DNA of 64,000 bases from an uncultured Gammaproteobacteria bacterium (GTDB taxonomy: Bacteria; Patescibacteriota; Patescibacteriia; UBA9934). This document shows, piece by piece, positions 1,845 through 59,924 of the stretch. A model generated the notes under the pieces. It saw nothing but the letters and a program-made list of their open reading frames with translations. It was not told the DNA's origin and made no database searches. The translations under genes were made by a program, and so were the position numbers. How positions within the stretch are numbered: the stretch's first letter is position 1; each line of letters starts with the position of its first letter. The stretch covers positions 10,973 to 74,972 of the forward strand of contig CAZTKG010000006.1 of the NCBI GenBank assembly GCA_964613815.1, read 5' to 3'.

Positions 1845-2594
1845 GTGTTATGCTTTGAGCCCATGGAACGAGAAGTGAAAATTAAGATTCCTGGGACGAA
1901 GAAGTTTGTGTATGTGAAGGTTCGAGGGAGTTTGAAGAAGCCTTTGGTGGTTTTTGTGCCGGGGCTTTTTTGTCGTATCAACGAGCATTATTTTTTTAAT
2001 GGGGCGAAGTATTTTGAGAAGGCGGGGTATGCGGTTTGTCGGATGAATTTGTATAGCTATCAGAAAGACGCTCGGAAGGCGGCGGGGTGTACGTTAAAGA
2101 CGCATGCGAATGATTTGGATGTTGTTGTGAGGTATTTTCGGGGGAAGGGGGTGCGGAAGATTTTTGTTGTGGGGCATAGTAATGGTGGAGCGGTGGTTTT
2201 GCTTTCGAAGAAGAAGGATTTTGATGGGGTTTCGCTTTGGGATTCGGCGCATGAGGAGATTAGTGGGTATAAGCAGTATTCTTATGTGAAGAAATTGTCG
2301 GGGATGAGTGGATATCGATTGCGATGGGCGATTGATTATATTTTGCCGAAGAATCTTGTGGAGGAAGCAGAGACGATCAAGTATGAGCATTTGATTGAGG
2401 ATATCGTGGCGCCTGTTCAGGTCATCGTCGCGGAGAAGGGGGTGTTGGTGCCTTATGGGAAAAGATATTATGAACGGGTTAAGGGGGAGAAGGATTATCA
2501 TCTACTTAGGGGAAGTGGGCATACGTTTAATGAAGATGGGGTTGAGGAGAAATTGTTTGCGGTGACGCGGGGGTGGTTTGATAAATGGCGGTAG
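1845..2594 (+). CDS. alpha/beta-fold hydrolase
   Basis: GHSNGG nucleophile elbow (GxSxG) and a plausible acid/His downstream. The true start may be M7 at 1863. Confidence 0.6.
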   Translation: MLCFEPMEREVKIKIPGTKKFVYVKVRGSLKKPLVVFVPGLFCRINEHYFFNGAKYFEKAGYAVCRMNLYSYQKDARKAAGCTLKTHANDLDVVVRYFRGKGVRKIFVVGHSNGGAVVLLSKKKDFDGVSLWDSAHEEISGYKQYSYVKKLSGMSGYRLRWAIDYILPKNLVEEAETIKYEHLIEDIVAPVQVIVAEKGVLVPYGKRYYERVKGEKDYHLLRGSGHTFNEDGVEEKLFAVTRGWFDKWR

Positions 2595-2653
2595 GGGTTG
2601 GTGATTTTTGGGAGGTAGGCGTTTTGGGCTTCTTGTGTTACAATGTCTTACAT

Positions 2654-2875
2654 ATGGATCAGCCTACGATTACGTTGCGATTGCCGAAAAAGATTAAGAA
2701 GCGACTTGATTCTTTTGTGAAATCTGAGCAGCGGAATCGGAGTGAGGTTGTGCGGGATGCGCTTCGGCAATATTTTGCGAAAGAGGAGTTTCGGGCGCTT
2801 CGGGCGAAGATGGTTCCTCGGGCTCAGGGGCGAGGGGTGTTTACAGATGATGATGTGTTTGATCGGGTTTCATGA
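2654..2875 (+). CDS. ribbon-helix-helix (CopG/VapB-like) antitoxin
   Basis: Internal ATG at 2654 gives MDQPTITLRLPKKIKKRLD..., a typical RHH N-terminal beta-strand plus helix. It overlaps the downstream PIN gene by 4 nt. Confidence 0.65.
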   Translation: MDQPTITLRLPKKIKKRLDSFVKSEQRNRSEVVRDALRQYFAKEEFRALRAKMVPRAQGRGVFTDDDVFDRVS

Positions 2876-3267
2876 GGGTGTTTTTTGATACGAATGTTTT
2901 GATTGCGGCGTTTGTTTCGCATGGAGGGTGTGCGGATGTTTTTGTGCATGCGATGGGGCATCATTCGGTTTTTGTTTCTGAATTTGTTTTGGGGGAACTA
3001 GAGCGAGTGCTTATGAAAAAGTTTGGATATGTGGAGTCAGATGTGACGGAGGTTTTGATATTTTTAAGGAATCAGCTAGGGGTTGTAGAAAGCGAGGGGC
3101 TTAATGTGAAGATTTGTCGGGATGAGGATGATGATTTTGTGCTTGCCGGGGCATTTGTGGCTCGGGCGGATTTTCTTGTTAGTGGGGATGAGGATTTGTT
3201 GGTTCTTGAGGAGATTGAGGGGGTTCGGATTATTTCCCCGAAAGATTATTGGAAACAGTTAACGTGA
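2872..3267 (+). CDS. vapC: PIN-domain ribonuclease toxin (VapC-like)
   Basis: MRVFFDTNVLIAA... is the PIN hallmark. Acidic residues lie further along (DEDDDFVLAG; SGDEDL). The gene is 131 aa and coupled to the RHH gene. Confidence 0.8.
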   Translation: MRVFFDTNVLIAAFVSHGGCADVFVHAMGHHSVFVSEFVLGELERVLMKKFGYVESDVTEVLIFLRNQLGVVESEGLNVKICRDEDDDFVLAGAFVARADFLVSGDEDLLVLEEIEGVRIISPKDYWKQLT

Positions 3268-7594: not shown

Positions 7595-7864
7595 ATGTAT
7601 CGGGTTGTTCTTTCCTCCCATTATCGACGGGCGTTTAAAAAGCTGAATTCTCGGGATCAGAAGCGCATTGATCGCGCTGTTTCGCTACTCGTTGATGATC
7701 CGTTTTTATGTGTGAATATTGAGTCAATTAAGGGGGTTCGAGAAAAAGCGTTTCGTCTTCGGGTTGGTCGTTATCGGGTTGTTTATTTTGTGATTACGAA
7801 AGATTTTGTGGTCGAAGTTTTGGGATTGTTTTTGAAGAAGGGTAAGGAGGATTATCAGATGTGA
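7595..7864 (+). CDS. relE: RelE/ParE-family toxin
   Basis: 89 aa with FRLRVGRYRVVYFV, the RelE core motif. Confidence 0.75.
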   Translation: MYRVVLSSHYRRAFKKLNSRDQKRIDRAVSLLVDDPFLCVNIESIKGVREKAFRLRVGRYRVVYFVITKDFVVEVLGLFLKKGKEDYQM

Positions 7865-7879: not shown

Positions 7880-9184
7880 ATGGCAGGAAAGATTAAGATT
7901 AGTAAGGATTTTAAACGCGCGTTTCAGTTGATGAATGAAACGGATTTGCATTTGTTTTTGACCGGGCGTGCTGGGACGGGAAAGTCGACGCTTTTGACGT
8001 ATTTTCGGAAGCATACGAAAAAACAGATTGCGATTTTGGCGCCTACGGGGGTGGCGGCGCTTAATGTGAAGGGGCAGACGATTCATTCTTTTTTTGGGTT
8101 TAAGCCGAGTGTGACGAAGGAGACGGTGCGGCGAGCGAAGAAGGATCAGCTTGATATGTTTGATAAATTGGAAGCGATTGTGATTGATGAGATTTCGATG
8201 GTGCGAGCGGATCTTTTGGATTGTGTTGATCGAGCGCTTCGGCTTAATCGGGCGAAGCCAGATATTCCGTTTGGTGGGGTGCAAATGATTTTTATTGGAG
8301 ATTTGTATCAGTTGCCGCCGGTGCTTACGGATCAGGAGCGGTTTATTTATGAGATGATGTATCAATCGCCGTACTTTTTTTCTGCGTATGCGCTTGGGGA
8401 TTTTGATATTACGGTTGTTGAATTGAAAAAAGTTTATCGGCAGAAGGATAAGGATTTTGTGAATCTGTTGAATCGGGTTCGGGATAATCAGCTCCTTAGT
8501 GATGATTTGGATGTTTGGAATGGGCGGCATGATCCGTTTTTTGATCCTGAGGAGCATGGGGAGGCGGTGCATTTGACGACGACGAATAAGATGGCGCAGT
8601 TGCGGAATGATTTTGAGTTGAGGCGACTTGAGGGGGAGGAGTGGGAGTTTAAGGGGGTGACGAGTGGGGAGTTTGATTCGCGGCGTGTGCCGGCGCCGGC
8701 GACGTTGAAATTGAAAGCTGGTAGCCGCGTGATGTTTACGTGTAATGATGTGCATCGACGGTGGGTGAATGGGTCGATTGGGACGGTTGTTTCTGTGAAG
8801 AAGGATCGGCCGCTTGCGAAGCATCCGACGGTTCGGGTGGAGCTCACTACAGGTGATGAGGTGAGAGTGGAGCCGCATACGTGGAATACCTATACGCATG
8901 TATTGAATCAGTCGAATGGGGATGTGGAGACGTCGCCTATTGGGTCTTACACGCAGTTTCCGCTTATGCTTGCTTGGGCGGTGACGATTCACAAGAGTCA
9001 GGGGAAGACGTTTGATAAGGTTTTGGTGGATGTGGGGTATGGGACGTTTGCGCATGGGCAGTTGTATGTGGCGCTCAGTCGATGTACGACGTTGAAGGGG
9101 ATTACGCTTCGGAAGCCGTTTCGGGCGAAGGATGTGATTTTGGATGATCGGGTGGTGGATTTTGTGAAGGCTTATACGGAATAA
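7880..9184 (+). CDS. Pif1/RecD-family 5'-3' DNA helicase
   Basis: Walker A (TGRAGTGKST), a Walker B DExx-like block (IVIDEISMV), and the C-terminal block LYVALSRCTTLKGITL typical of Pif1/RecD2/TraA-like helicases. Confidence 0.8.
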   Translation: MAGKIKISKDFKRAFQLMNETDLHLFLTGRAGTGKSTLLTYFRKHTKKQIAILAPTGVAALNVKGQTIHSFFGFKPSVTKETVRRAKKDQLDMFDKLEAIVIDEISMVRADLLDCVDRALRLNRAKPDIPFGGVQMIFIGDLYQLPPVLTDQERFIYEMMYQSPYFFSAYALGDFDITVVELKKVYRQKDKDFVNLLNRVRDNQLLSDDLDVWNGRHDPFFDPEEHGEAVHLTTTNKMAQLRNDFELRRLEGEEWEFKGVTSGEFDSRRVPAPATLKLKAGSRVMFTCNDVHRRWVNGSIGTVVSVKKDRPLAKHPTVRVELTTGDEVRVEPHTWNTYTHVLNQSNGDVETSPIGSYTQFPLMLAWAVTIHKSQGKTFDKVLVDVGYGTFAHGQLYVALSRCTTLKGITLRKPFRAKDVILDDRVVDFVKAYTE

Positions 9185-12104: not shown

Positions 12105-12419
12105 TTAGCGTGTTTTTGGGTGTTTGTCAAGGGTTTGAAGAATTCGTTGTTCTGCGAGTTTGTAGATTTTTGATCGATGTCCGATGATGTAAACGATGAC
12201 AGTTTGTTTTTGAATTTTGTATATAATTCGATAATTACCTACTCGGAGAGAGAGGTAGCCTTTTAGCGGAGGGACGAGATGTTTTCCGAAAAGATGAGGT
12301 TTTTTTCTGAGTTTTTCGCGTATTGATTTGTCGATGCGTTTTTTGATGGAGTTTGAAAATTTTGGAACATCTTTTTTGAGCACGCTTTCACGATATGCTA
12401 TTTGATAGGTGTTCCCCAC
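12105..12419 (-). CDS. relE: RelE/ParE-family toxin
   Basis: Core LSLRVGNYRIIYKIQKQTVIVYIIGHRSKIY. The proposed GTG start (VGNTYQIAYRE...) overlaps the antitoxin stop by about 20 nt. The track ORF begins further upstream at a non-credible start. Confidence 0.65.
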   Translation of the reverse strand: MGNTYQIAYRESVLKKDVPKFSNSIKKRIDKSIREKLRKKPHLFGKHLVPPLKGYLSLRVGNYRIIYKIQKQTVIVYIIGHRSKIYKLAEQRILQTLDKHPKTR

Positions 12420-12625
12420 ACTTCTTCGTGCGTTAATAGTTTTTCGTCTTTTCGTGCGTCGGCTAGCTCTGTCCAAATCATGTCTTCTTGCTCACTTATC
12501 GCTTTTTCTAATAAATCGGTGGCGATTTTTGTTTTTGAGACACCTTTATATTTAGCGAGTTTTGAGATCCAGAATTCCAGCTTTTCATTCAGAATTAGGT
12601 TTAGTCTTGGTTTTGTTGTAGGCAT
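12398..12625 (-). CDS. antitoxin of the RelE module (RelB/ParD-like)
   Basis: A 75-aa ORF starts at the ATG at 12625 (MPTTKPRLNLILNEKLEFWISKLAKYKGVSKTKIATDLLEKAI...). It lies immediately upstream of, and overlaps, the toxin gene. Confidence 0.55.
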   Translation of the reverse strand: MPTTKPRLNLILNEKLEFWISKLAKYKGVSKTKIATDLLEKAISEQEDMIWTELADARKDEKLLTHEEVWGTPIK

Positions 12626-12723
12626 ATATTTAGTGTGACACCAGTGTATCACTTTTGTTTGAGGATGTAAAATCAGGGACTGCTTGTGCAGTCCCTGTGA
12701 GAGGAGCTGATCATGGAGGATGA

Positions 12724-13518
12724 TCAGGAGATGAAGCCGCCGGCGGCGGTGGTGGAGAAGGCGGCGGCGGTCTGGCTGGCTCGGACGGCCGAGCGGGAGA
12801 AGACGTTGAAGGCGGCGCGGATCTCGGTGGGGGTGCCGGAGGGGGTTAGGATCCATTCGTCCTCGAGGCCCATGGAGCGGAAGACGGCCGTGAAGTCGGT
12901 GGAGCCGTCGTCAATGCCCATGGCGGCCACGATGTGGGTCTCGGCGGCCAGCATGTCGGAGACGACCTTCTTGATCTTCGCCGGGGTTTGGCGACGAGAG
13001 GTGCAGTCGGCGCCGTCGGTGATGATGAGGGTGACGGTGCGGCACGGGACGCCGTTGTCTTCGAACTCCTGCGCCTTGGCGAGGACGGTCGCGAGGATGA
13101 CGGCGGTCTCGTCGTAGAGCGGGGTCATGCCCATGGGGTCGTAGTTCGAGGTGTCCATGGTGGGGACGCCGGAGAGGGGCGAGTAGGGGTAGAGGATGGT
13201 GCCGTTCAGGTACCGGGTGTGGGCGATGATGCCGTCGCCCTGCTTGGAGTCCTTGAGGGCGTCGATGACGAGGTTGTGACCAGCGCGTACAGCGTCCGCG
13301 TTCTTGCCGAAGCGGATCGAGCCAGAGTCGTCGATGAGCATGGTGACCAGCACGACTTCGCTTGCGGTGACGTCGTCGACGGCGACGCCGAGGCCGGCGG
13401 CGATGTTGGCGCCGATGTCGGGGATGTTGAGGGCCATGACGGAGGCGGGGGTGAGCGTGCCGTCGTCGGTTGCGGCGTTGAAGAGGGAGGCGACGTTTGC
13501 TACGGTGGAGGAGGACAT
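12724..13518 (-). CDS. von Willebrand factor A (vWA) domain protein, TerY-like
   Basis: MIDAS motif DxSxS (MLIDDSGSI), plus TLIITDGADC and a further T/D. It is the last gene of the PP2C-kinase-amidase-vWA operon. Confidence 0.75.
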   Translation of the reverse strand: MSSSTVANVASLFNAATDDGTLTPASVMALNIPDIGANIAAGLGVAVDDVTASEVVLVTMLIDDSGSIRFGKNADAVRAGHNLVIDALKDSKQGDGIIAHTRYLNGTILYPYSPLSGVPTMDTSNYDPMGMTPLYDETAVILATVLAKAQEFEDNGVPCRTVTLIITDGADCTSRRQTPAKIKKVVSDMLAAETHIVAAMGIDDGSTDFTAVFRSMGLEDEWILTPSGTPTEIRAAFNVFSRSAVRASQTAAAFSTTAAGGFIS

Positions 13519-13700
13519 GGGGAGCTCCTTTGGAGCGATGATGTCCCTGCGGGACGGATAGAGCCCTTTTGGGGCGATAGGGATCCTGCGGATCGATAGA
13601 TGGCCACTCTTCGCGCTGCCGGGAAGCTTTGCGAAGAGTGGTTTTTGGGTTGCGTTTGGTACACTCCCGCCGGAGTTGTTTGATGATGATGTTGACTTGA

Positions 13701-14750
13701 TTAGGAGATGATCAGGTCAGGCCAGTCATTCATTGGGGTCATGGACTCGACGAGATGCATGCCGGCGGATTCGAAGCGCTTGAGGGCGGCTTCGGACTCG
13801 GGGGTGAAGTCGGCCACGAAGCCTCCGGCGCCGTCCGGGATCGCGACCGAAGACATGCAGTCGGTGAGGATGTAGACCTTGCTGACGAGCGACGGGTCGC
13901 GGGCGGCGATGTCGTCGAGGAGGTCGTCGATGGAGGACTTGACGCAGTGGCTTGCGGCCTGGCCGGCGATGATGACGGCGTCGGAGTCCACGAGCTTCTT
14001 GAGGAAGCCGGCGTTCCTCTGGGCGAGGGGGGCGCCGTCGTGACGGGTGAGGACTTCGGGGCGGAAGACGCTGTAGTTCTCGGTGAGCGGATGGCCGCCC
14101 TTCACTTCGCACCACGACTGGGAGCCGCGGGTGAAGCTGTGGAACAGGCGCGCTTCGTGGATGTTGCCGGCGAGGGCGTGACCGGTGGATCCGAGGAGGC
14201 AGTGCGGGGGCCAGAGGTAGAGGGCATACTTGCCCTCGCGTTCGAGCTCCTTGGTGTAGTGGATGACCTGCTTGAGGAGCCAGGCGTAGTTGCCGCTACA
14301 AAGCCACCAGGCCATCGCAGGGTTCGGACGGACGGCACCGGACTTGATCTCGGTGGTGGTGATGACGCGGAAGGGGGTGAGGGGAGCGCCAGCGCTATCG
14401 ATCCAGAATGACGCGAAGAAGATCTGGTACGCGAAGTGCGTGTCCATGGTGGTGGTGATGTCGGTGATGGCGCCGAGGTTCCGGTAGATGAATTCGGCGG
14501 TGCGGCGGGAGTCGTCGATGGCGCCAGAACCGGAGCGGCCGCCGACGTAGAGCGTGCCTTCGGGGAAGCAGAAGTCGCGCTGGACGTCGATGAGGAGGAG
14601 GTGGATGCGGGTTCGGTCGCTGGCGGCGGGGGTGATGGAGTTCGACTTGCGGTAGTCCGTCGCTGCGGCCATCAGGGTCATCTGGTCGGGGTTGTAGTCG
14701 AAGCGGGCGGAGGTGGGGGTGTAGAAGCTGGGCAGGGGGAGGGTGGTCAT
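13701..14750 (-). CDS. pncA: PncA-type nicotinamidase / isochorismatase-family cysteine hydrolase, 349 aa with insertions
   Basis: LLLIDVQRDFCFPEGTLYVGG, WPPHCLLGSTGHAL and IIAGQAASHCVKSSIDD match the PncA blocks IVDVQNDFCEGGSLAVTGG, WPPHCVSGTPGADF and VVGIATDHCVRQTAEDA. Catalytic D, K-region and C are present. Confidence 0.75.
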   Translation of the reverse strand: MTTLPLPSFYTPTSARFDYNPDQMTLMAAATDYRKSNSITPAASDRTRIHLLLIDVQRDFCFPEGTLYVGGRSGSGAIDDSRRTAEFIYRNLGAITDITTTMDTHFAYQIFFASFWIDSAGAPLTPFRVITTTEIKSGAVRPNPAMAWWLCSGNYAWLLKQVIHYTKELEREGKYALYLWPPHCLLGSTGHALAGNIHEARLFHSFTRGSQSWCEVKGGHPLTENYSVFRPEVLTRHDGAPLAQRNAGFLKKLVDSDAVIIAGQAASHCVKSSIDDLLDDIAARDPSLVSKVYILTDCMSSVAIPDGAGGFVADFTPESEAALKRFESAGMHLVESMTPMNDWPDLIIS

Positions 14751-14887
14751 GGGGATCTCCTTTGAGCGGTAGAGCCCTTTTGGGCGATAGGGATCCTTGC
14801 GGATCGATGGGGGCGCTTTGCGCCGACAGGGTTCAGCGAAGCTGAACGATAGGGTTGTTGTTGAACGTGCGTAGATTTTTCCAAGCT

Positions 14888-16753
14888 CTACGCGAGCTTG
14901 AGGAGGGAGATGTCTTTGTGATTTACCACGTAGATGCCTCCTGGCGCGGGGAAGAGGGCGCTTTCGGTGGTGACGAATGGTGCCGTTTTTGGGAACTCTT
15001 TGGCTTTTGTGATGGAAGAGCTATTGATGTCCATGCGGACGATGCCGTCGTCGGTTGCTGCGAGCAGCATGGGGCCTATTGCGCATTTTCCTCGAATGGT
15101 GCCGAGCCAGGTTCCGTCCTTTGAATGTGTCTCGGCGGATGCGATGACGGATCCATTCTGTTTGATGACGGTGCATCTATTGAGAATTTTTCCGGCATGC
15201 TTGTAGGTGACGAACAGCCAGCAGTGGGTGTGCGAGAAGCTGCAGGTTATGTCGATGAGCTGACCAGGGATTTTGGGCAGGTTGATCGAGTCATTGAGGC
15301 TTCTTGCGCCTTTTGTGAACATGAACGCGACGTTCATGGTTCCGGCTCGGTAGAGGCCGAAACCGAAGGTTTCTCCGGTCCAGATGAGGGTTTGGCCTTC
15401 GAGAATGTCGCCGATGTAGACTTCGCCGAAGTCATCTGCTTTCCGGAGCTGATGTCCTCTGGTGAAGAATGTGTGTTCACCGTTTGCGTCGAAGATGGGG
15501 AGATTTCGGAAGGATCCGATTGCTTTGCGCTCTGGAGGTCTTCCTGATTTGAGAGAGACGAGTATGCCGTTTCGGCCGAGGATTGTTTTGTTGCCAGAGA
15601 TGCGGTAGCGCATTTTTGGCTCGAACGATCCTGTGGTTACGCGGCGGCCGTCTTCTCGTTTGAGGGCATTGTTTTCGTGGTAGATCCAGCGGAGTTTTCC
15701 GTTTTGGACTGTCGCGAATACGATGTGACCTGAAGTGCGGAAGAATCGGTTGTTTGTGACGTTTCCGATAACGGTGACGGTTTCTTTGACGGCTGTTGCT
15801 GGAGTTCCAGCGCATGCGGGGCAGGTGAGTCTGGCGTGAACGAGATCGCAATGCGTGCATGTTTTCCAGTCCAGGTTTTTGATGAGGTGCTCAGGGAATG
15901 ATCCTCGGGCATCTTTTTTGAAGACCTGGTAGAAGTGCTGAAGAAGGTCGTCGGGGATGGAGTGCAGCGGGAGGGCTGGCTTGGGGTAGCGGACTTCGTC
16001 GTCGAAGAGGGTGATGCGACGAAGGGGGCGCTCCGGATGTTTGACGCGTTTTTTCTTGTCCCTTGGCTTGTAGACACCTCCGAATGGGCCGACACAGAGG
16101 AGGCAATACATGAGCATGGTGGTGAATGCGTACCAGTCTGAGTTCTCATTGTGCGGCTTGTGCAGCGTGAGATGAGACTGGTTCGGATCTGCGAGAAGCG
16201 GGTCCATGTAGCGTTCGGTGTACATGCGCGCGAACCATTTGCCGTACTGAAAGCTGTCAGCGTCGATGATGTAGGCCTCGGCGTCACGTATGAGGACGTT
16301 GAGGTCGTTGAAGTCGCCGATGACGACTCCGCGGGCGTGGATGGCTCCGACGGTTTTGTGCAGGTCAAGGAATATTTTGACGATGCGTGCCGGGTCCACG
16401 GTGAGGCGGAATTGTTTTTCGCTGAAGGCTCTGAGCGGGTCTGCACCTGGAATCAGGCGCATGGTGTAGCCAGCTATTTGATTGCCGCGTTTGCTTGTGG
16501 CGAGATCGATTGGGGTGATGACTCTTGCGGGGAGACCTTTTGGAAAGGCAGGAAGCTTTGCCTGATGTTCTTTGATTCGAGCTTTGGCGTTTGCTTGCTC
16601 TCCGGGGTCTCCGTGGAAGTCGGCATGGCTTGCGGTTTTGAAGATCTTGGCCGCTTTGCCTGAGCCGATGTCGTAGACGTCCGCCTCGCTCCCTTTGCCG
16701 AGTGTTCGGCTGGGATCGATACGAATGCGCCGACCGTTGATGTAGGTGTGCAT
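14888..16753 (-). CDS. atypical protein-kinase-like protein with a Cys4 zinc ribbon and a C-terminal beta-rich domain
   Basis: The N-terminus carries a Gly-rich loop LGKGSEADVYDIG, a VAIK-like AAKIFK, a catalytic-loop-like HARGVVIGDFNDLNVLI and a DFG-like IIDADSF. These are followed by CTHCDLVHARLTCPAC and about 280 aa of beta-strand-rich sequence. Confidence 0.7.
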   Translation of the reverse strand: MHTYINGRRIRIDPSRTLGKGSEADVYDIGSGKAAKIFKTASHADFHGDPGEQANAKARIKEHQAKLPAFPKGLPARVITPIDLATSKRGNQIAGYTMRLIPGADPLRAFSEKQFRLTVDPARIVKIFLDLHKTVGAIHARGVVIGDFNDLNVLIRDAEAYIIDADSFQYGKWFARMYTERYMDPLLADPNQSHLTLHKPHNENSDWYAFTTMLMYCLLCVGPFGGVYKPRDKKKRVKHPERPLRRITLFDDEVRYPKPALPLHSIPDDLLQHFYQVFKKDARGSFPEHLIKNLDWKTCTHCDLVHARLTCPACAGTPATAVKETVTVIGNVTNNRFFRTSGHIVFATVQNGKLRWIYHENNALKREDGRRVTTGSFEPKMRYRISGNKTILGRNGILVSLKSGRPPERKAIGSFRNLPIFDANGEHTFFTRGHQLRKADDFGEVYIGDILEGQTLIWTGETFGFGLYRAGTMNVAFMFTKGARSLNDSINLPKIPGQLIDITCSFSHTHCWLFVTYKHAGKILNRCTVIKQNGSVIASAETHSKDGTWLGTIRGKCAIGPMLLAATDDGIVRMDINSSSITKAKEFPKTAPFVTTESALFPAPGGIYVVNHKDISLLKLA

Positions 16754-16762
16754 TGATTGATC

Positions 16763-17578
16763 CTATTTGGAAGCGGTTTTTCTTCCACAGATGATGGTGG
16801 TGTCGTCTTCGAGCAGCCCAGAAAAACGTGTAATACGTCTTCCAGGCCAGTCCACTTTTTGACCGTCACGGTTCATGATTCTGAGGCGTCTGTTGATCGC
16901 CTCTGGGTTTTTGTAGAACCGGTCATTTGTCCAGAACTGGTCGATTCCTCCTACGACTTCGTGTTTTCCTGGAAGGAGACAGTCAGCGCGTTTGATGATA
17001 TTTTCGGCGCCATCTGTTCCGATGAGGAAGTGCTTCACTTCGCTTGTTGGGCCCTGCCATGCGACCTGTAAGGTCATGGATTCAGGGGCCACGTCTTTGA
17101 GGCTGGTGGGGACGAGGTCGTATGCGATGTAGATTGGTGTATTGCCTTCTTGAGGGTTCAGAATGATTGTTTTGTCGTTGATCTGGATCATTCCGTCACC
17201 GCAGAAGAAAGCGGTTGTGGTGTCTTTTTGCACCATGATGCCGATAATGGTGAAGAGGAAGTGGTCGGCGATGATGCGGTTGGGGTTTGCGCCCATGTTT
17301 CGTGCGAGGGTGAGGATCTGCTGTTTGATCATGCCGCTGGCGGCGAGCAGTCCTGTGCTTGCAGGGAGGTGCGTACAGTTTGCAATTGCTTTTGCTGCGA
17401 TGTGCGCGCCGATTTTGGCGCCTACTTCGCTGTGAGGTGCGCTTCCACATCCGTCTGTGACGATGGCGATGAAGCCGTCTTTGATGGGGATGATGCGGAA
17501 GCCGTCCTGGTTGTTTTTTCCCGATTTTCGATGCGATCTGCCCGTAACGGTGCCGTTCGCAAGTTCGAAGGTGGTCAT
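16763..17578 (-). CDS. PP2C-family Ser/Thr protein phosphatase
   Basis: FIAIVTDGCGS, FFCGDGM and FLIGTDG are the metal-binding Asp motifs of PPM phosphatases. It is the first gene of the operon, and its stop lies 10 nt from the kinase start. Confidence 0.8.
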   Translation of the reverse strand: MTTFELANGTVTGRSHRKSGKNNQDGFRIIPIKDGFIAIVTDGCGSAPHSEVGAKIGAHIAAKAIANCTHLPASTGLLAASGMIKQQILTLARNMGANPNRIIADHFLFTIIGIMVQKDTTTAFFCGDGMIQINDKTIILNPQEGNTPIYIAYDLVPTSLKDVAPESMTLQVAWQGPTSEVKHFLIGTDGAENIIKRADCLLPGKHEVVGGIDQFWTNDRFYKNPEAINRRLRIMNRDGQKVDWPGRRITRFSGLLEDDTTIICGRKTASK

Positions 17579-17803
17579 TGGGTTTCCGGGGTTGAGTTGT
17601 GAAAGGGCTGCTGCGTTTATACGCAGATTGCGGGAGGGAAGTGGCTATCTTCCAACCCAGAATCTGGGTATAATTGTTTTATTGACACTAAGTACTTGGA
17701 AAAATTTTTATGGAGGGTTTGTGGCCTTTGGCCGTTTGTATCGCTTTGCGATGTTTGTGGCCCTTTGGGCCGTTTGTTGGAATTTGTTGTTGTTGATATT
17801 ACA

Positions 17804-17866
17804 CTAACTAACACATAAAAAAATAGTTGTCAACCCCGTAAAAATCAGCGAGCTGATTCACGTGGC
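17804..17866 (-). promoter_or_regulatory. promoter of the PP2C-kinase-pncA-vWA operon (TTGACA-16-TTAGTT) with a conserved upstream module GCCACGTG-N-AATCAGCgaGCTGATT-TTTAC-GGGG
   Basis: Reverse complement reads gCCACGTGaatcagctcgctgattTTTACggggTTGACAactatttttttatgtgTTAGTT. The same architecture recurs at 18668-18731 and 24112-24171. Confidence 0.5.
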
Positions 17867-17876
17867 ATGGTCTCTT

Positions 17877-17956
17877 TCCCATCTCGACCTTGTGGAGAGA
17901 TCTGATAGCGACCAGGGCATGAGATCTCTCCACAGGGTCGAGATGGGAAGAGGGGG
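17877..17956. repeat. complete copy of a dispersed inverted-repeat element: 26-bp arms CCCATCTCGACCTTGTGGAGAGATCT / AGATCTCTCCACAGGGTCGAGATGGG around an 18-nt centre, followed by AAGAGGGGGG
   Basis: Seen directly. It is homologous to the copies at 38970, 42524, 48921 and 63089. Confidence 0.7.
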
Positions 17957-17959
17957 GTG

Positions 17960-18643
17960 TTAGATATGCATAATGTCTATTTCTTTGAATGATCGGGACT
18001 TGAAGCTGTAGAGGGCGGCGGGACGGTTGGCTTGACCTGTTTGTTTGCGGCCGGTGGGTTTGATGAGGTCTAGGGAGAGGAGTTTTCGGCGGAAGTTTCG
18101 TTTGTCTAGTTTTTTGCCGAGGATTGTTTCGTAGGTTGCTTGGAGGTCTGTGAGGGTGAATTCTTTTGGAAGAAGGGACCAGACGATGTTGGTGTAGCCG
18201 AGTTTTGCCTTTAATCGCTTATGCGCGAGTTTGATGACAGTTTTGTGGTCGTAGGCGAGGGGAGGGAGTTTTTTGATGGAGACCCAGCGGACGTCTTTGT
18301 ACTTTTCTGAAGTTTTGAGGGGGTAGCGGCCACTTGGGAGAAGGGCGAAGTAGGTGATGGAGATGACGCGGCCCAGGGGGTCTCGTTTGATGTCGTCGAA
18401 GGTTTGGAGTTGTTCTAAGTATGCTGATTTGACGCCTGTCTGTGCATTTAGGATGCGAATTGTGGCGTCTTTTGATGTTTCGGCTTGTTTGATGAGGCCT
18501 CCTGGAACGGCCCATTTGTCTGTGAATGGGGCGCGTTTCATTTGGATGAGGAGGACTTTGAGGTCATTGTTTTGGACGGTAAAAATGACTGCATCGGCAG
18601 CGATTTTGATGTTTTGTCCGTTCCAATGTTTCGGGGTAGCCAT
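17960..18643 (-). CDS. NrtR-like regulator: NUDIX hydrolase domain fused to a C-terminal winged-helix domain
   Basis: Nudix box GGLIKQAETSKDATIRILNAQTG (GX5EX7REUXEEXGU-like), with about 90 aa of C-terminal basic/helical sequence. The start was taken at the ATG (MATPKHWNG) because the track's GTG start lies inside the -10 box. Its own promoter (TTGACA-17-TACTTT) lies at 18668-18697. Confidence 0.65.
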   Translation of the reverse strand: MATPKHWNGQNIKIAADAVIFTVQNNDLKVLLIQMKRAPFTDKWAVPGGLIKQAETSKDATIRILNAQTGVKSAYLEQLQTFDDIKRDPLGRVISITYFALLPSGRYPLKTSEKYKDVRWVSIKKLPPLAYDHKTVIKLAHKRLKAKLGYTNIVWSLLPKEFTLTDLQATYETILGKKLDKRNFRRKLLSLDLIKPTGRKQTGQANRPAALYSFKSRSFKEIDIMHI

Positions 18644-18667
18644 AGGGTGTTTGTGTCGTATGTACAC

Positions 18668-18731
18668 AAAGTATCATGGGTTTTGGGTGTTGTCAACCTC
18701 TGTAAAGATCAGTAGGGCTAATCCGCGTGGC
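18668..18731 (-). promoter_or_regulatory. promoter of the NrtR-like gene, carrying the same upstream module (GCCACGCG...TTTAC..GGTTGACAA)
   Basis: Reverse complement reads GCCACGCGgattagccctactgatcTTTACagagGTTGACAacacccaaaacccatgaTACTTT. Confidence 0.5.
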
Positions 18732-19219: not shown

Positions 19220-19235
19220 TCTCTTCTGATAGCAC

Positions 19236-19258
19236 GCGGTTTCGCGTGTTTTTTTCTT
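19236..19258 (+). terminator. rho-independent terminator: cacgcg-gttt-cgcgtg + T7
   Basis: Sequence cacgcggtttcgcgtgttttttt. Confidence 0.6.
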
Positions 19259-19515
19259 TGATACAAAAGTGGTCCGTACGGACCACTTTTGATACAAGGA
19301 GGATGGGGGGGTGTTGTTTGTTTTAGGTAATGAAATATGTGTTTTTTGATTTTTGTATTTGGTTTCTCTCTGTATTTAATATGCTCCGTACGGATTGTTT
19401 TTGTATCAAGGAGGTTGATGGGCGAGTGATGAGGGAGGATTTTTTTGGGATGTGTGATTAGTTGACATTGTGGGATTTTTTTGTTATGTTTTTTTCGTTC
19501 TTTTGAGGAGGGACT

Positions 19516-38457: not shown

Positions 38458-39036
38458 ATGTCGAATCGTCATTTAGCCCGAACCATGGCTATGCAGTGTC
38501 TTTTTGAATGGGATTTTCGTCGTGGTGATAAAGAGCGGGTGCCGGAGATTGTGCAGTTTGTGAAGGAGGAGTTTGCTCCTCAGTTTGATGATGGGGATTA
38601 TGTGGCTCATCAGGTCGCGGAAACGATTGGGCGGATTAATGAAATTGATGAGATTTTGGAACATTTTGCGCCGGATTGGAATATTCCTGAGATGACGATT
38701 GTTGATCGGAATATTTTGCGGCTTGGGGCGTATGAGTTGAAATTTGATGAGAAGATTCCTAGTAAGGTGGCGATTAATGAGGCGATTGAATTGGGGAAGA
38801 CATTTGGAGGAAGTGCTAGTGGGAAGTTTATTAATGGTGTGCTTGGAGCGGTTTATAAAGATATGGTTGCCAAGGGTGAGTTGAAGAAGGTTGATTTGGA
38901 GAAGCGAGAAGAAAAAGAGAAGAAGGAAGAAGTGGCTGATGCCGGGGAAGGGAAGGAAGGTGAAGAGATCTCTCCACAAGGTCGAGATGGGAAGGGGGAT
39001 GAGAAAGAGGAGAAGAAAGAATCTAGTGACGAATAA
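38458..39036 (+). CDS. nusB: transcription antitermination factor NusB with an acidic/Lys C-terminal extension that contains a repeat-element half copy
   Basis: [21 protein letters not shown]...[14 protein letters not shown] is the NusB core. The tail ...[12 protein letters not shown]... is encoded by the AGATCTCTCCACAAGGTCGAGATGGG repeat. Confidence 0.8.
38970..39002. repeat. half copy of the inverted-repeat element (AGATCTCTCCACAAGGTCGAGATGGGAAGGGGG) inside the nusB 3' coding region
   Basis: Identical to the reverse complement of the left arm at 17877-17902. Confidence 0.7.
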
Positions 39037-42478: not shown

Positions 42479-42523
42479 AAAAACGACCGTGATGAGGTTC
42501 GGTTGTTTTTTGATGAGATCTCT

Positions 42524-42560
42524 CTACTCACTTCGTTCGGTCGAGATGGGCAGAGGGGTT
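42524..42560. repeat. long-form half copy of the inverted-repeat element (AGATCTCTCtactcacttcgttcGGTCGAGATGGGCAGAGGGG)
   Basis: Matches the reverse complement of the left arm of the 63089 copy (agatctctccattcacttcgctcagtcgagatggg). Confidence 0.65.
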
Positions 42561-48919: not shown

Positions 48920-49276
48920 CTAGATCTCTCCGCCTTGGTCGAGATGGGAGGAGGCGGTGGAAGTTGGTTCTGGTTCAGATGGTGATGTTGCGGCTAAGCT
49001 GCTTTTTACTTCGTCTTTTAGTTTTTTTCCAGCTTTGAATTTTGGCACTTTTACCGCTGGGATGTCGATGATTTGAGATGGGTTTCTTGGGTTCACGCCT
49101 TTTCTTGCGTGGCGTACGCGGGAGGAGAACGTGCCGAATCCGCTGATGGTTACTTCTTCATCGTTTTGGAGGGCTTTGATGATTTCTGCTTGGAAGGCGA
49201 TGAGGAAATCTTCTGCCTCTTTTTTGGAGAGGTTGAGATTGTCTGCAATTTTTTCTGCCAGTCTTGCTTTGTTCAT
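48920..49276 (-). CDS. hup: DNA-binding protein HU with a Ser/Pro/Thr C-terminal tail
   Basis: MNKARLAEKIADNLNLSKKEAEDFL...GFGTF...R.ARKGVNPRNP is the HU/IHF fold signature. Confidence 0.8.
   Translation of the reverse strand: MNKARLAEKIADNLNLSKKEAEDFLIAFQAEIIKALQNDEEVTISGFGTFSSRVRHARKGVNPRNPSQIIDIPAVKVPKFKAGKKLKDEVKSSLAATSPSEPEPTSTASSHLDQGGEI
48921..48950. repeat. half copy of the inverted-repeat element (AGATCTCTCCGCCTTGGTCGAGATGGGAGGAGG) overlapping the hup stop codon
   Basis: The last 9 codons and the stop of hup (SHLDQGGEI*) are encoded by the element. Confidence 0.65.
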
Positions 49277-49287: not shown

Positions 49288-50817
49288 TTAACGTGCGTAC
49301 TCGCTAACGCGGGTCTCGCGGATGATTGTGATTCGAACTTCGCCGGGGTAGGTGAGGCTACTTTCGATTTTCTTTGCAATGTCTCTTGCTAGCTTGTGCG
49401 CTTCGTAGTCGTCGACTTTGTCTGGCCTTACGAAGACGCGGACTTCGCGACCGGCTTGGATAGCGTAGGCTTTCTCGACGCCTTCGAAACTGTTTGCCGT
49501 GTCTTCTAGGTTTTGGAGGCGCTGGAGGTAGTCTTCCACGTTTGTTCTACGCGCTCCAGGTCTTGCACCGCTGATGGCGTCGGCTGCTTTTACGATTATA
49601 CCCTCTAATGTGCGAGGGCGGTCTTCGTGGTGTGCAATAGATTGGTAACAGAGGTCTTCTGGCCAACCGAATTTTTTCATGATGTTGTAGCCGATTTCTG
49701 GATGGGCGCCTTGCATGTCGTGGTCAACGGCTTTTCCGATGTCGTGGAAGAGTCCGCCTTGTTTGCAGTTTTTGACGTCAGCGCCGAGTTCTTCTGCAAT
49801 CATACCGGAGATACGAGCGACTTCGATGGAATGTTGAAGGACGTTTTGTCCGTAGCTGGTTCGGAATTTGAGTCGGCCAAGAATAGAGACGAGTTTTGGA
49901 TCGATGGATGAGACGGGAATACCGAGTTGATAGAGTGCGTCTTCTCCAGCTTTTTTCATTTCTCGTGCAAGTTCTTTTTTGGCGAGTTCAATGGTGTCTT
50001 CGATTTTGGCTGGCTGGATGCGGCCGTCTTTCATGAGCATCTCGATGGTGCGTTTGGCGATTTGGCGACGGACAGGGGAGAAACCGCTGATGGTGATGGA
50101 TTCTGGTGTGTCGTCGATGATGATTTCGCAGCCTGTGAGGCGTTCGAGCGCCTTGATGTTTCGTCCTTCTTTTCCAATGATGCGGCCCTTCATATCGTCT
50201 GATGGGAGACTGACGTTTGTTGTTGTGGAATCAACAACATGAGAGGCGGCGAATCTTTGAATGGCGAGGGAGAGGATTTTTTTCGCTTTGTTTTCTATTT
50301 CGTCATCGTGCTCTTGCTCCATTTTTCTTACGCGTGAGAGGAGGGCCTCTTTTTGGTCTTGTTCTACGAGATTGAAAAGATGATCTTTTGCTTCGTCTTT
50401 TGAGAGACCTGCGATTGATTGGAGTTTATCGATGGCTTCTTGTCGTTTTTTGTGAACTTCTTCGGCTTTTTGTTCTATTTTTTTAAATTCTTCTTGAATT
50501 TTTGCCTTGCTCTCCTCGAGACCCATGAGTTTGGCGTCGAATTTATTTTGACGGTCGAGAAGTTGGCGTTCGAGGTTTTTGAGCTCTCTTCGACGTTCGT
50601 TTTCCTCTTGTTTTCCTTTTTCGATGAACTTGAGCGTTCGTTCTTTCGCGGCGATGAGCATTTCTTGCTCTTTGTTTTTTGCCTCTTGTAGGATTTTGTT
50701 CGCTTTTATTTCTGCGCCTTCGACTTTTCGTTTGCCGAATGTGCTTCGAGCGATGACTCCGATGAGGATTCCGATAACGAGTGCTCCAAGTCCAGATGCG
50801 ATAATTCCTGTTGGCAT
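49288..50817 (-). CDS. rny: ribonuclease Y
   Basis: N-terminal TM helix, a coiled coil, a KH domain (IIGKEGRNIKALE) and an HD domain (HSIEVARISGMIAEELGAD...GLFHDIGK). Confidence 0.88.
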   Translation of the reverse strand: MPTGIIASGLGALVIGILIGVIARSTFGKRKVEGAEIKANKILQEAKNKEQEMLIAAKERTLKFIEKGKQEENERRRELKNLERQLLDRQNKFDAKLMGLEESKAKIQEEFKKIEQKAEEVHKKRQEAIDKLQSIAGLSKDEAKDHLFNLVEQDQKEALLSRVRKMEQEHDDEIENKAKKILSLAIQRFAASHVVDSTTTNVSLPSDDMKGRIIGKEGRNIKALERLTGCEIIIDDTPESITISGFSPVRRQIAKRTIEMLMKDGRIQPAKIEDTIELAKKELAREMKKAGEDALYQLGIPVSSIDPKLVSILGRLKFRTSYGQNVLQHSIEVARISGMIAEELGADVKNCKQGGLFHDIGKAVDHDMQGAHPEIGYNIMKKFGWPEDLCYQSIAHHEDRPRTLEGIIVKAADAISGARPGARRTNVEDYLQRLQNLEDTANSFEGVEKAYAIQAGREVRVFVRPDKVDDYEAHKLARDIAKKIESSLTYPGEVRITIIRETRVSEYAR

Positions 50818-50873
50818 ATCTGGAATTGTATAAAATGATTACTCACTGACTTTAGCAACGGTTGCTGGGGTCG

Positions 50874-51569
50874 TCAATGCGATTTTTGGATGAGGAGGGA
50901 TTGCCAATTGTCTTTGGTTACGTCTCTGAGGTTAGCGGCGTTTTGGATTGTGTAGGTTCCGATGGTGGATCTGTTTAGGGAAGAGCAGTAGCCGAGGGTG
51001 TTTAGGTGCTTTGCAAGATCCCTCGCGATACACCTGATGTAGGTTCCGGATGAGCACGAAATTGATACATCGATGGTTGTGGTTTGATCGCCTTGGTTGA
51101 TGTTTCGCAGTTTGAAGTCGGTGATGGTAATTTGTCGGGGTTTGCGTTCGATTGTTTTTCCTTGGCGGGCGAGTTCGTAGAGTTTTTTTCCGTTTACTTT
51201 GATCGCGGCGTACATTGGGGGGATTTGGTCCTGGGGGCCGGTCATGGCACCCATCGCGGTTTTAATGTTGGTTTCTGATAGGGATGGGGGTGATTCTGCG
51301 TATGTTATTTTTGATTCTGGGTCTAGGGTTTCTGTCGTTGCTCCGAGGGTGAAGGTCGCTTCGTAGGTTTTTGGGAGGCCGACGAAGCTTGAAATTTCTT
51401 TTGTTGCTTGACGGGATATGGCGAGGATGAGGAGTCCTGTAGCGAATGGGTCGAGAGTTCCGGCGTGACCTATTTTTTTGATGCCGGTGATTTTGCGGAG
51501 CGTGTCGACGACGTCGTGAGAGGTGATTCTGGGGGGTTTGTTTATGAGGAGAAATCCTGATGGTGTCAT
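50874..51569 (-). CDS. truB: tRNA pseudouridine(55) synthase
   Basis: GFLLINKPPRITSHDVVD and GHAGTLDPFATGLLILA (catalytic Asp motif). Confidence 0.85.
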   Translation of the reverse strand: MTPSGFLLINKPPRITSHDVVDTLRKITGIKKIGHAGTLDPFATGLLILAISRQATKEISSFVGLPKTYEATFTLGATTETLDPESKITYAESPPSLSETNIKTAMGAMTGPQDQIPPMYAAIKVNGKKLYELARQGKTIERKPRQITITDFKLRNINQGDQTTTIDVSISCSSGTYIRCIARDLAKHLNTLGYCSSLNRSTIGTYTIQNAANLRDVTKDNWQSLLIQKSH

Positions 51570-51609
51570 ATGAATTGAGTTTAGATGAGGTTGACGTGTT
51601 TGGCTAGGG

Positions 51610-52320
51610 TTGGTAGATTTTTTTTATCGTTCTTTGGGAGAATTGATGTTTTTGATTGGTCTTTTTTTCTCGTTTTTCTTTGTTTCTGATGCTGATGCTG
51701 GGCGCCAATGTGTTCCTCGTCGGGTGTATGACCTCTCTTTGTATCCTGGATTTGATCGGGATGATTGGGATGTCTATGACGCGGAGACCTGCGTTGCGAC
51801 GGTGCACGTTGATTATGATCCTGCTGTCGGTGAAACGATTCGGATGATGGATTCGACTGCGGTGAATGCGGAGGTGACGCGGCTTGTGCTGGAGATTCGA
51901 AGTGTTTTTTTGTGGATTCAGCGGATTCATAAAGAAGATTGGAGTGCGTATCTTCGGTCGATGGGGCATTTTTCGTATGCGCTTTGTTCGGGTGCTCGGC
52001 TCATGTATTACGCGCACGAGCGGCCTGATCGGGTGCCTGATGGGATTGTGATGAGTGCGATTCGTGATCCTGGTGGACGACTTGGAGGGCCTGGGTATGC
52101 GGCAATGTTGATGTATCGGGCTGTGGATCTTGGTTATCGCGATGCGGCGCTTTTGCTTTGGCATGAGCTTGAGCGTGTTGAGGAGGCTGGCGGCGGGTTG
52201 AGTTGTTCGAATGAGATTGAGGGGGCTTCGTCTCGTCGATATGCCGCGGTTCTTGATGAGCGTGGGCAGGAGGCTGCTGATCAGGTGCGAATCAACTTTC
52301 AGTTCTTGCCGCCGAGCTGA
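51610..52320 (+). CDS. secreted hypothetical protein
   Basis: N-terminal signal-peptide-like segment (FLIGLFFSFFFVSDADA). No motif recognised. Confidence 0.45.
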   Translation: MVDFFYRSLGELMFLIGLFFSFFFVSDADAGRQCVPRRVYDLSLYPGFDRDDWDVYDAETCVATVHVDYDPAVGETIRMMDSTAVNAEVTRLVLEIRSVFLWIQRIHKEDWSAYLRSMGHFSYALCSGARLMYYAHERPDRVPDGIVMSAIRDPGGRLGGPGYAAMLMYRAVDLGYRDAALLLWHELERVEEAGGGLSCSNEIEGASSRRYAAVLDERGQEAADQVRINFQFLPPS

Positions 52321-52361
52321 TATCTCCCGCATGCGGGGGATTTTTTTGTTATACTTCTTGC

Positions 52362-52853
52362 ATGACGCATGGATATTCAAATATTGAGGTTTTGACGGCT
52401 GGAGCGATTGTGATGTTTTTGGCGCTTGTTTTGATTGTACTTGGTGGGCCTGATCGGGAACTTCGGGCGGAATATGATGTGGTGCGTCAGGGGGATGTGG
52501 GTGATGTGATGGAAGTGATGCTTGATTTGGAGCTTTCGGATCGGGAGGAATTCGCTGGGGTGGTTGGGCAGGTGACGGATCGGCGTGTGATGCTTGGGAC
52601 GGGGGTTGATTGCAGTGGAGATGTGGGGACGGTATGTACAGATGAAGGGCTTGCGGACGCGTGTTTGGATTTGAGTGGATATTTTGAAGGGCATGATCCT
52701 GATGTGATGCCAGTTGATCCTCGTGATGGGGAGTTTACGATGGAGCGGACGGGGTATTACATTTCTTTTGTTGATGGGTTGATGGAGATTGGGAGTTGTA
52801 ATCCTGAGAGTATGAACGGGGTGTTTTTGCAGAAGCGGTTTGGGCTTGAGTAA
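52362..52853 (+). CDS. type IV pilin-like / pseudopilin protein
   Basis: MTHGYSNIEVLTAGAIVMFLALVLIVLGG has a class III signal with G at -1, Glu at +5, and a hydrophobic helix. Confidence 0.5.
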   Translation: MTHGYSNIEVLTAGAIVMFLALVLIVLGGPDRELRAEYDVVRQGDVGDVMEVMLDLELSDREEFAGVVGQVTDRRVMLGTGVDCSGDVGTVCTDEGLADACLDLSGYFEGHDPDVMPVDPRDGEFTMERTGYYISFVDGLMEIGSCNPESMNGVFLQKRFGLE

Positions 52854-52923
52854 GTTTTTTGCTTTTATTATTGACGCTTTGGGCGTTTTTTTGTATTGTC
52901 CTCGGTATTGAACCCCTACTTCC

Positions 52924-54918: not shown

Positions 54919-55216
54919 GAAAAGGAGGTGAATTGAAGAGGGAGAGGCTTTTTTGGGCAATCGGACGCCTTTAACGCCTCTTTTTTGATTTTGGCTTCAG
55001 ATGGATAAAAGAGGGTGGACGGCGTTATTCCTCATGCCTAAAAACACCCCTCCTCCCTCCAATTCACGTTTTTATAGGGGAATGAAAAAACACCGGGGAT
55101 AGCTGGTGCTTTTGATGGTGCCGTGTGGCGTGGGCGCTGCTGGCCTCGCGGGATCCTTTCGGCGCGCTAGGGCTGGCGCGCCTCAGGATGGTGGAGCAAG
55201 GTGGGATTTTGTAATC

Positions 55217-55525: not shown

Positions 55526-55606
55526 AGAGATAGATTCAAAATTCAAAGTGGTGATAGTTTATCATATTTCGATTAAAGATTCTGTTTGTGATAAACTCAG
55601 GCCAAT

Positions 55607-56536: not shown

Positions 56537-56626
56537 GTTTTGATGGAGGCTGTCGGGGTTCTCGGCGGTTTTTTGATTGAAAAAAAGAACCCCTTTAGGG
56601 GGTGAGGGTTTTGCAGAGATGTTGAG

Positions 56627-59911: not shown

Positions 59912-59924
59912 GGGGTGAAAACGG

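Follow-up and report, generated by a model that had tools for sequence, protein, structure and literature searches.

Why would two genes of one operon be preceded by nearly the same untranslated sequence? The question is raised by a 64,000-nt stretch of DNA (the window) from an uncultured bacterium (GenBank assembly GCA_964613815.1, contig CAZTKG010000006.1, positions 10,973 to 74,972). On its minus strand, downstream of nrtR, lies an operon that encodes a PP2C phosphatase, a kinase-like protein, a nicotinamidase-like protein, and a vWA-like protein, in that order. The spacers before the vWA-like gene (leader 1) and before the nicotinamidase-like gene (leader 2) are 182 and 137 nt long, just as the initial annotation of this DNA had given them, and they share a nearly identical block. 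The annotation suggested that the block belongs to an RNA structure that controls translation, or else that it is an internal promoter or regulator site that was duplicated when a gene was inserted. To us, the near-identical blocks look like a lineage-specific structural spacer, not a conserved riboswitch, promoter, or regulator site. The coordinates of all of the features are in Table 1.

A duplicated block before two genes

The block that is common to both leaders is 39 nt long (ATCGATCCGCA[A]GGATCCCTATCGCCC[C]AAAAGGGCTCTA). With blastn-short, the two copies align over 40 nt at 95% identity (E = 2.4e-9), which makes them the third-ranked repeat of the window, and an nhmmer profile finds them with E = 1.5e-13 and 6.6e-13. 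They differ by two 1-nt indels alone, both of which fall within homopolymer runs or the loops of predicted hairpins. The first bases that had been given for the block (CCATCG...) are exact for leader 2, but leader 1 has CCATCTATCG. After each block comes the ribosome-binding context that had been pointed out before, AAAGGAG(C/A)TCCCCATG, at 13516-13531 and 14748-14763.

The similarity between the leaders extends from the block to the start codon. In a global alignment, the 3' parts of the leaders score 73, versus -16.6 ± 7.1 for shuffled sequences. The alignment has a single long gap region of ~21 nt, which is the length of one hairpin unit (see below). We infer that the last ~62-83 nt of both leaders, with the block, the ribosome-binding site, and the ATG, are local duplicates, and that one unit was gained or lost.

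Arrays of small hairpins

Leader 1, leader 2, and the 5' untranslated region (UTR) of the PP2C gene are all arrays of perfect hairpins of 4-7 bp, with ~6 nt between them. Each unit of the array is ~19-20 nt long and consists of a ~6-nt linker of C, A, and U (CCUAUC-like or ACAAAC) and a perfect 4-7 bp stem with a loop of 3-5 nt. The loops are AAA, AAAA, GCA, GCAA, or UUC. Because the leaders resolve into tandem units of linker plus hairpin, the block of the initial annotation corresponds to two consecutive units, and it folds into the same pair of hairpins within both leader contexts. The other hairpins that had been noticed, which are the 11-bp stem of leader 1 and GTTCAGC-TTC-GCTGAAC and GGCGC-AAA-GCGCC in leader 2, were all located. 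The extra unit of leader 1 explains the indel of ~21 nt, and its stem differs from GAUCC/GGAUC through compensatory changes. In leader 1, even the ribosome-binding site belongs to a unit: it forms the 3' arm of GCUCC-AAA-GGAGC, and its probability of being paired is ~0.99. The last unit of leader 2 is weak: the linker UCUACC is followed by GCUC-AAA-GGAG, with a 3-bp stem (-1.6 kcal/mol), and then by UCCCC AUG.

We searched the window for chains of such hairpins (perfect stems of at least 4 bp, loops of 3-5 nt, and spacings of 3-10 nt). Each leader contains a chain of 4 consecutive perfect mini-hairpins, and across the 64 kb, no other chains of 4 or more were found. Of the 8 chains of at least 3 hairpins in the window, 5 are within this operon. 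Block shuffles contained, per strand, 0.05 chains of 4 hairpins and 0.6 of 3. When each region was shuffled while preserving its dinucleotides, the observed chain length was matched in 0 of 2,000 shuffles for leader 1, 0 of 2,000 for leader 2, and 1 of 2,000 for the 5' UTR of the PP2C gene.

We also built a covariance model from the two copies of the block. (Each indel was padded with N, because MAFFT aligned the blocks without gaps and shifted the middle.) This model identified a third copy of the module at 17730-17780, in the untranslated region before the PP2C gene (20.1 bits, rough E = 2.5e-4), in which both stems have changed in a compensatory way.

Could these copies be recent and without function? 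A leader segment might have been copied through a recent local duplication or gene conversion, leaving functionless sequence that is too young to have decayed. There are only two near-identical copies, with slippage-type 1-nt indels in homopolymer runs and one indel of unit length, all of which fits this explanation. Also, the 16 other contigs of this organism, which come from JGI, ENA, and Logan, show 99.84-100% identity, and the leaders are invariant wherever they are covered. Since all of these contigs are clonal, they offer no strain variation for testing covariation, and purifying selection is not demonstrable. On the other hand, three separate regions have hairpin arrays that depart strongly from chance, and diverged units keep perfect stems via compensatory changes, which is hard to square with neutral structure. 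We consider a purely neutral duplication to be unlikely.

No sign of a conserved regulatory RNA

Rfam 15 gives little reason to expect a known RNA family. At the gathering threshold, the sole matches in the window are two tRNAs, with none in the leaders, and at E ≤ 10 over 12600-18000, there are no matches inside either leader, including to the NAD+ riboswitches. The NAD+ riboswitches do resemble the leaders in that they are linked to NAD-metabolism genes. Also, class I (the nadA motif) has two similar stem-loop domains in tandem, and class II (the pnuC motif) acts on the ribosome-binding site. However, besides the lack of matches, the units here are too small and have no conserved internal loops, and the block is neither conserved in orthologous loci nor paired with the ribosome-binding site.

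The initial annotation had proposed that GGATC in the block pairs with GATCC at the ribosome-binding site and so controls translation. This pairing is absent from the predicted ensembles of leaders 1 and 2, in which the ribosome-binding site never pairs with the block. Instead, the partition function pairs GGAG with the adjacent GCUCC in leader 1, and with CCGCUC or with CCUCC from the coding region in leader 2. The proposed pairing is possible in leader 2 only, as GATCC lies beside the ribosome-binding site there (GGAGATCC), while leader 1 has GGAGCTCC and reads GAGCTCC. The leaders are structured beyond chance, as had been suggested (the z-scores of their minimum free energies are -5.8 and -3.0, and their chains were not matched by shuffling), but the suggested mechanism is not supported.

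We searched for the block in 16 loci: 14 orthologous operons and two flanks (~18 kb of flanking genome). It was absent from all 16 according to both nhmmer and the covariance model (best covariance-model E = 0.7). There were no copies of the module outside of the operon in ~82 kb (the window and the ~18 kb of flanks), and the hairpin-chain finder identified no arrays in the orthologous spacers of 12 loci (L007-L018). A scan of genome_contigs returned 8 loci, mostly from cyanobacteria, and none of them has the block. An exact 23-base pattern had no matches in viral_contigs and none in metagenome_contigs, a collection that evidently does not contain this organism. The databases we searched hold no close relative: the best non-self matches are 67% identical for the vWA-like protein, 53% for the kinase, and 58-65% for leucyl-tRNA synthetase (LeuRS).

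The earlier proposal had been tied to conservation of the block in related genomes and to occlusion of the ribosome-binding site. Largely, neither was seen: the covariance search gave 0 copies in the 14 orthologous operons, and the block does not occlude the ribosome-binding site. Overall, nothing supports a conserved regulatory RNA, and the block is not a ligand-sensing riboswitch.

DNA-level explanations

Alternatively, the block might act as DNA: it could be an internal promoter, or NrtR or another transcription factor could use it as an operator. The proposed recognition features are direct repeats of CTATC with a period of ~19-20 bp and two palindromes, listed as GATC-containing (ATCGAT and GGATCC). 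These palindromic hexamers, together with the GATCC-N3/4-GGATC dyad in the block, are what a DNA site might look like; CCTATC-like linkers recur at about two helical turns; and the operon is linked to NrtR. A promoter seems improbable, as there are no sigma-70-like matches on the gene strand of either leader, while the genuine promoters of the locus, upstream of nrtR and the PP2C gene, are canonical (GGTTGACAAC-17-TAnnTn).

The block does not look like an NrtR operator either. According to Rodionov et al. 2008 (PMC2330246), NrtR operators are palindromes of 21 bp that contain a GT-N7-AC core. The block shares a regulon with such sites (at 18650-18670, 17789-17807, and 17671-17691), but unlike the regions upstream of nrtR and the PP2C gene, it has no GT-N7-AC core on either strand, nor is it a 21-bp palindrome. 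Upstream of the block in leader 1, there is a half-site-like AGTGTACCAAACGCAAC, and nothing more NrtR-like. More broadly, the spacing of the dyad differs by 1 bp between the two copies, which argues against a dimeric DNA binder: such a change can be tolerated in a hairpin loop, but usually not by a dimeric protein. The distribution of GATC is also ordinary. Of all the explanations that we considered, action at the DNA level is the least likely. As for the origin of the block, its duplication upon insertion of a gene is not supported, because Parcubacteria, Uhrbacteria, and other lineages, across phyla, have the four genes in the order PP2C, kinase, nicotinamidase-like, vWA.

We rejected several other candidates. 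The hairpins in the leaders are not intrinsic terminators or attenuators, as none is followed by a U-tract on the gene strand. (Near the 3' end of the operon, that strand has a single terminator-like site, at 12674-12697.) A miniature inverted-repeat transposable element does not fit, as the ends of the block (ATCGATCC... and ...GGGCTCTA) are not inverted repeats and the flanks of the copies share no duplicated target. The defining features of attC sites are missing. Finally, regulation by Dam or a cluster of GATC sites was rejected, with observed/expected GATC of 0.82 and evenly spread sites.

Spacers of related operons

The four genes follow one another in this order in Parcubacteria, Uhrbacteria, unclassified Patescibacteria, and cyanobacteria. 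They are also together in a gammaproteobacterium, where the vWA-like gene is ahead of the nicotinamidase-like gene. This cassette usually adjoins NAD genes: nicotinate phosphoribosyltransferase (NAPRTase), prs and a gene with fused NAD synthase and adenylyltransferase domains (nadE/nadD-like), pncA, pnuC, or nrtR. Across Patescibacteria, cyanobacteria, myxobacteria, and gammaproteobacteria (loci L007-L010, L016, L017, L033, and L035), the cassette proteins are 45-67% identical, with sizes of ~620 amino acids (kinase-like), ~350 amino acids (nicotinamidase-like), and ~260 amino acids (vWA-like). PADLOC reported only weak kinase matches for the cassette, and we found no paper that describes it.

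The spacers within these cassettes are not uniform. Those of L007 and L008 are plain and 29-73 nt long, and L035 has 44 nt before the vWA-like gene. L009 (a metagenome-assembled genome, or MAG, of an unclassified bacterium) and L010 (an Uhrbacteria MAG) have long leaders of 127-220 nt at the two equivalent positions. Those leaders are filled with unrelated palindromes GTCATTGCGAGG...CCTCGCAATGAC, which resemble repetitive extragenic palindromes (REPs) and recur elsewhere between genes at those loci, and there is no convincing alignment between the leaders of the window and those of L009 and L010. In L033, a single strong hairpin separates the nicotinamidase-like gene from the vWA-like gene. 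The leaders of L033 and L035 are unrelated to the block. The long leaders of L009 and L010 imply that long structured spacers at both positions recur in an Uhrbacteria-like lineage, with a sequence that is lineage-specific.

Comparison with REP elements

REPs are imperfect palindromes of ~35-40 nt with tens to hundreds of dispersed copies, and they are linked to REP-associated tyrosine transposases (RAYTs). In Enterobacteria and Pseudomonas, these short extragenic palindromes lie within or after operons, and in bacterial interspersed mosaic elements (BIMEs), they form tandem arrays that alternate two types of hairpins, with short conserved linkers. In polycistronic mRNAs such as malE-malF, they are barriers to 3' exonucleases. 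The leaders are similar to REPs and BIMEs in that they contain extragenic stem-loop palindromes in intercistronic arrays, with conserved linkers and a lineage-specific sequence; short arrayed palindromes are just what we see here. The difference is that the units here are perfect hairpins of 11-17 nt, from one operon only within ~82 kb. Also, no RAYT (IS200/IS605-type Y1) is among the precomputed Pfam calls for 1-20408 and 50099-64000 of the window.

Our preferred explanation is that the leaders contain a lineage-specific, REP/BIME-like array of intercistronic hairpins that was duplicated locally in units of ~20 nt and serves as a spacer at the RNA level. We give this about an even chance of being correct. 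In its favor are the duplication itself, the non-random arrays, the folding of the leaders and the block, the indels that affect only loops, the third copy and the pairing kept across the copies, the structured leaders at like positions in L009 and L010, and the hairpin in L033.

Several observations count against this explanation. The module is confined to this operon in ~82 kb, whereas true REP families have many dispersed copies; by contrast, the window's own REP-like family is present at 5 sites in 64 kb. Many other intergenic regions in the window match the leaders' folding z-scores, so the z-score alone cannot single out the leaders. Covariation within the genome is partly circular, because the third copy was chosen by, and the alignment fitted to, a model that rewards pairing; in that model-fitted alignment, 31 of 31 cells pair and 6 of the 9 pairs are altered on both sides. 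Finally, the plain short spacers in L007, L008, and L035 (before the vWA-like gene) imply that the cassette needs no such structures.

The array of mini-hairpins fills every untranslated segment of what is predicted to be one polycistronic mRNA, and the block is two of its units rather than a motif on its own. By analogy to REP/BIME or other intercistronic stem-loops, the arrays would act at the RNA level. They would supply folded spacers to a transcript that is otherwise G-poor and weakly structured. These folded spacers could stop exonucleases or mark processing sites, or they could insulate the translation starts of the nicotinamidase-like and vWA-like genes from upstream coding sequence. 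The duplication would give those two genes near-identical start regions. On this view, the array probably acts on mRNA stability or insulates the start of translation.

A more specific role is conceivable. The two-hairpin module might be a cis-acting RNA operator before each translation unit (PP2C plus kinase, nicotinamidase-like, and vWA-like), with translation or processing coordinated by a trans-acting RNA-binding factor or by the ribosome, for which the module would be a standby site. In favor of such an operator, which a protein might bind, the module is restricted to the operon in the sequence available (~82 kb), and it points the same way in each of the three untranslated regions. The two block copies hardly differ although their flanks have diverged, loops and linkers are kept while stems vary, and in leader 1, a hairpin unit makes up the ribosome-binding site. 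In several of these respects, the leaders resemble CsrA/RsmA targets and the RNAs RsmY and RsmZ, which have arrays of short hairpins near a ribosome-binding site, with conserved loops and varying stems. But the loops here are AAA or GCA rather than GGA, which is the motif for CsrA, and they match no other known protein motif; no cognate or candidate binding protein was identified; and the arrays come from a single genome. Furthermore, the module is in none of the orthologous operons examined, its distance from the start codon varies (22, 43, and ~150 nt), and the composition of the linkers mirrors the A/C-rich strand bias. An RNA operator therefore seems doubtful to us, about as much so as a neutral duplication. 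The stronger proposal, which we think is slightly less probable still, is that these are an undescribed class of modular RNA, with mini-hairpin arrays that have conserved loops and linkers and co-varying stems, and that an RNA-binding factor or the ribosome uses them to set the outputs of the phosphatase-kinase pair, the nicotinamidase-like enzyme, and the vWA-like protein.

The window and its relatives contain other repeats. The palindromes of L009 and L010 (GTCATTGCGAGG...CCTCGCAATGAC) and those of the window's own REP-like family (CCCATCTCGAC...GGAGAGATCT) are like the hairpin arrays in being palindromic and repeated within one locus, and those of L009 and L010 are found at the two equivalent places between the genes of the cassette, in the nearest of the lineages sampled. 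However, neither has any sequence similarity to the block, and both are 60-100 nt long, nested, and clearly dispersed to other intergenic regions. The window's family is at 17876-17949, 38958-38998, 42516-42550, 48922-48950, and 63096-63177; the first of these is an inverted pair with 31-nt arms between nrtR and the promoter of the PP2C gene. This family resembles the GAGATTTCTCC...TCGAAATGAC elements of L009 and L010.

Three further repeats were noticed. A perfect inverted repeat of 35 nt, with arms at 59918-59952 and 60048-60082 that are 95 nt apart, has no Rfam matches; closely downstream of it is leuS, the start of which we placed at 60099. (LeuRS itself has 998 amino acids and an inserted region with a weak Ham1p-like match; its relatives carry Nudix or hydrolase insertions.) At 19255-19300, a palindrome with 23-nt arms and no spacer has the strongest folding z-score of the window (about -9.5 on both strands), and it adjoins a terminator-like site at 19231-19250. 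And the ~170-nt intergenic sequence downstream of infB (54922-55090) has a 90%-identical copy ~12.3 kb away, just outside the window (17158-17327 of L019).

The operon and its surroundings

Table 1. Positions in the window of the genes, leaders, hairpins, and transcription signals of the operon
Feature	Position	Strand	Details
Terminator-like hairpin and U-tract	12674-12697	-	closes the operon
vWA-like gene	12724-13518	-	264 aa; 0 Pfam matches; vWA/VWFA naming taken from homologues in public sources
Leader 1	13519-13700	-	182 nt; before vWA-like gene
Leader 1 hairpin GCUCC-AAA-GGAGC	13524-13536	-	linker AUCAUC, then UCCCC AUG; GGAG 13525-13528; ATG 13516-13518
Leader 1 extra unit GUCCC-GCA-GGGAC	13543-13555	-	linker UCUAUCC; absent from leader 2
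Block copy 1, ATCGATCCGCAGGATCCCTATCGCCCCAAAAGGGCTCTA	13559-13597	-	leader 1; covariance model 70.5 bits
Leader 1 hairpin GCCC(C)-AAAA-GGGC	13563-13575	-	second half of block; linker CCUAUC
Leader 1 hairpin GAUCC-GCA-GGAUC	13582-13594	-	first half of block; linker CCAUCUAUC
Leader 1 hairpin, 11-bp perfect stem	13604-13641	-	-21.3 kcal/mol; no U-tract
Leader 1 hairpin CUCC-GGCG-GGAG	13664-13675	-	
Nicotinamidase (PncA)-like gene	13701-14750	-	349 aa; weak database matches (isochorismatase, PncA)
Leader 2 translation start, AAAGGAGATCCCCATG	14748-14763	-	GGAG 14757-14760; ATG 14748-14750
Leader 2	14751-14887	-	137 nt; before nicotinamidase-like gene
Block copy 2, ATCGATCCGCAAGGATCCCTATCGCCCAAAAGGGCTCTA	14770-14808	-	leader 2; covariance model 69.7 bits
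Leader 2 hairpin GCCC-AAAA-GGGC	14774-14785	-	second half of block; linker CCUAUC
Leader 2 hairpin GAUCC-GCAA-GGAUC	14792-14805	-	first half of block; linker CCCAUC
Leader 2 hairpin GGCGC-AAA-GCGCC	14812-14824	-	linker CCUGUC
Leader 2 hairpin GUUCAGC-UUC-GCUGAAC	14831-14847	-	linker CCUAUC
Kinase-like gene	14888-16753	-	621 aa
PP2C phosphatase gene	16763-17578	-	271 aa
Second NrtR-type site near PP2C, TTAGTGTCAATAAAACAATTA	17671-17691	-	GT-N7-AC core
PP2C 5' UTR hairpins GGCCC-AAA-GGGCC, AUCGC-AAA-GCGAU, GGCC-AAA-GGCC	17723-17771	-	ACAAAC linkers
NrtR-type site, TTAGTGTAATATCAACAAC	17789-17807	-	GT-N7-AC core; overlaps PP2C operon promoter
Operon promoter, TTGACA-17-TAGTTA	17805-17833 (entry 17789-17833)	-	overlapped by NrtR-type site
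nrtR gene	17960-18643	-	Nudix domain and NrtR winged helix
NrtR-type palindrome, TTTGTGTACATACGACACAAA	18650-18670	-	overlaps nrtR promoter

From these signals, it appears that one polycistronic mRNA would run from the PP2C gene to the vWA-like gene, starting at a sigma-70 promoter under NrtR-type control and ending at the terminator-like hairpin. Candidate NrtR sites like those of the window (TTAGTGTA...ACAC) are also found upstream of the cassette in L009 and L010. The nicotinamidase-like protein retains the motifs DVQRDF, DTH, VKGG, and SHCV, which correspond to the catalytic and metal-binding residues of the PncA family. Judging by LeuRS, the nearest named taxa to this organism are the Uhrbacteria and other Patescibacteria (58-65% identity).

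The GC skew of the plus strand is extreme in every 1-kb bin of 1-64000 (+0.12 to +0.57, with T>A), regardless of the orientation of the genes. This skew makes the minus-strand genes rich in C and A, and long spurious antisense open reading frames (ORFs) arise. For example, in public annotations of 13701-14750 (L001 and L023-L025), two antisense ORFs of 218 and 109 amino acids replace the nicotinamidase-like gene, and the kinase and vWA-like genes are likewise displaced by antisense calls in some public records. These antisense calls look like an artefact of the strand bias.

The operon is flanked by genes of toxin-antitoxin type: Fic (1197-1580), a ribbon-helix-helix (RHH) protein with PIN (2585-3267), RHH with an unnamed partner (7595-7864), and ParE (12105-12476). 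A helicase of the PIF1 family is encoded at 7880-9184.

Implications

Taken at face value, the leaders contain a lineage-specific structural spacer in one uncultured genome, and they are a caution that near-identical blocks in leaders need not be riboswitches. They also illustrate that in the strand-biased genomes of Patescibacteria, the intercistronic regions of the same cassette gather different palindromic repeats in each lineage. If the arrays are specific to this operon and functional, then they would be a compact natural example of translation-initiation regions that are duplicated and insulated by hairpins. If they are a modular class of RNA, which we think is improbable, then NAD/ADP-ribose-responsive control in this Patescibacteria bacterium would have a further, post-transcriptional layer. 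The more promising lead is the four-gene cassette of PP2C, kinase, nicotinamidase-like, and vWA-like genes, which is widespread and is linked to NrtR and to genes for NAD salvage.

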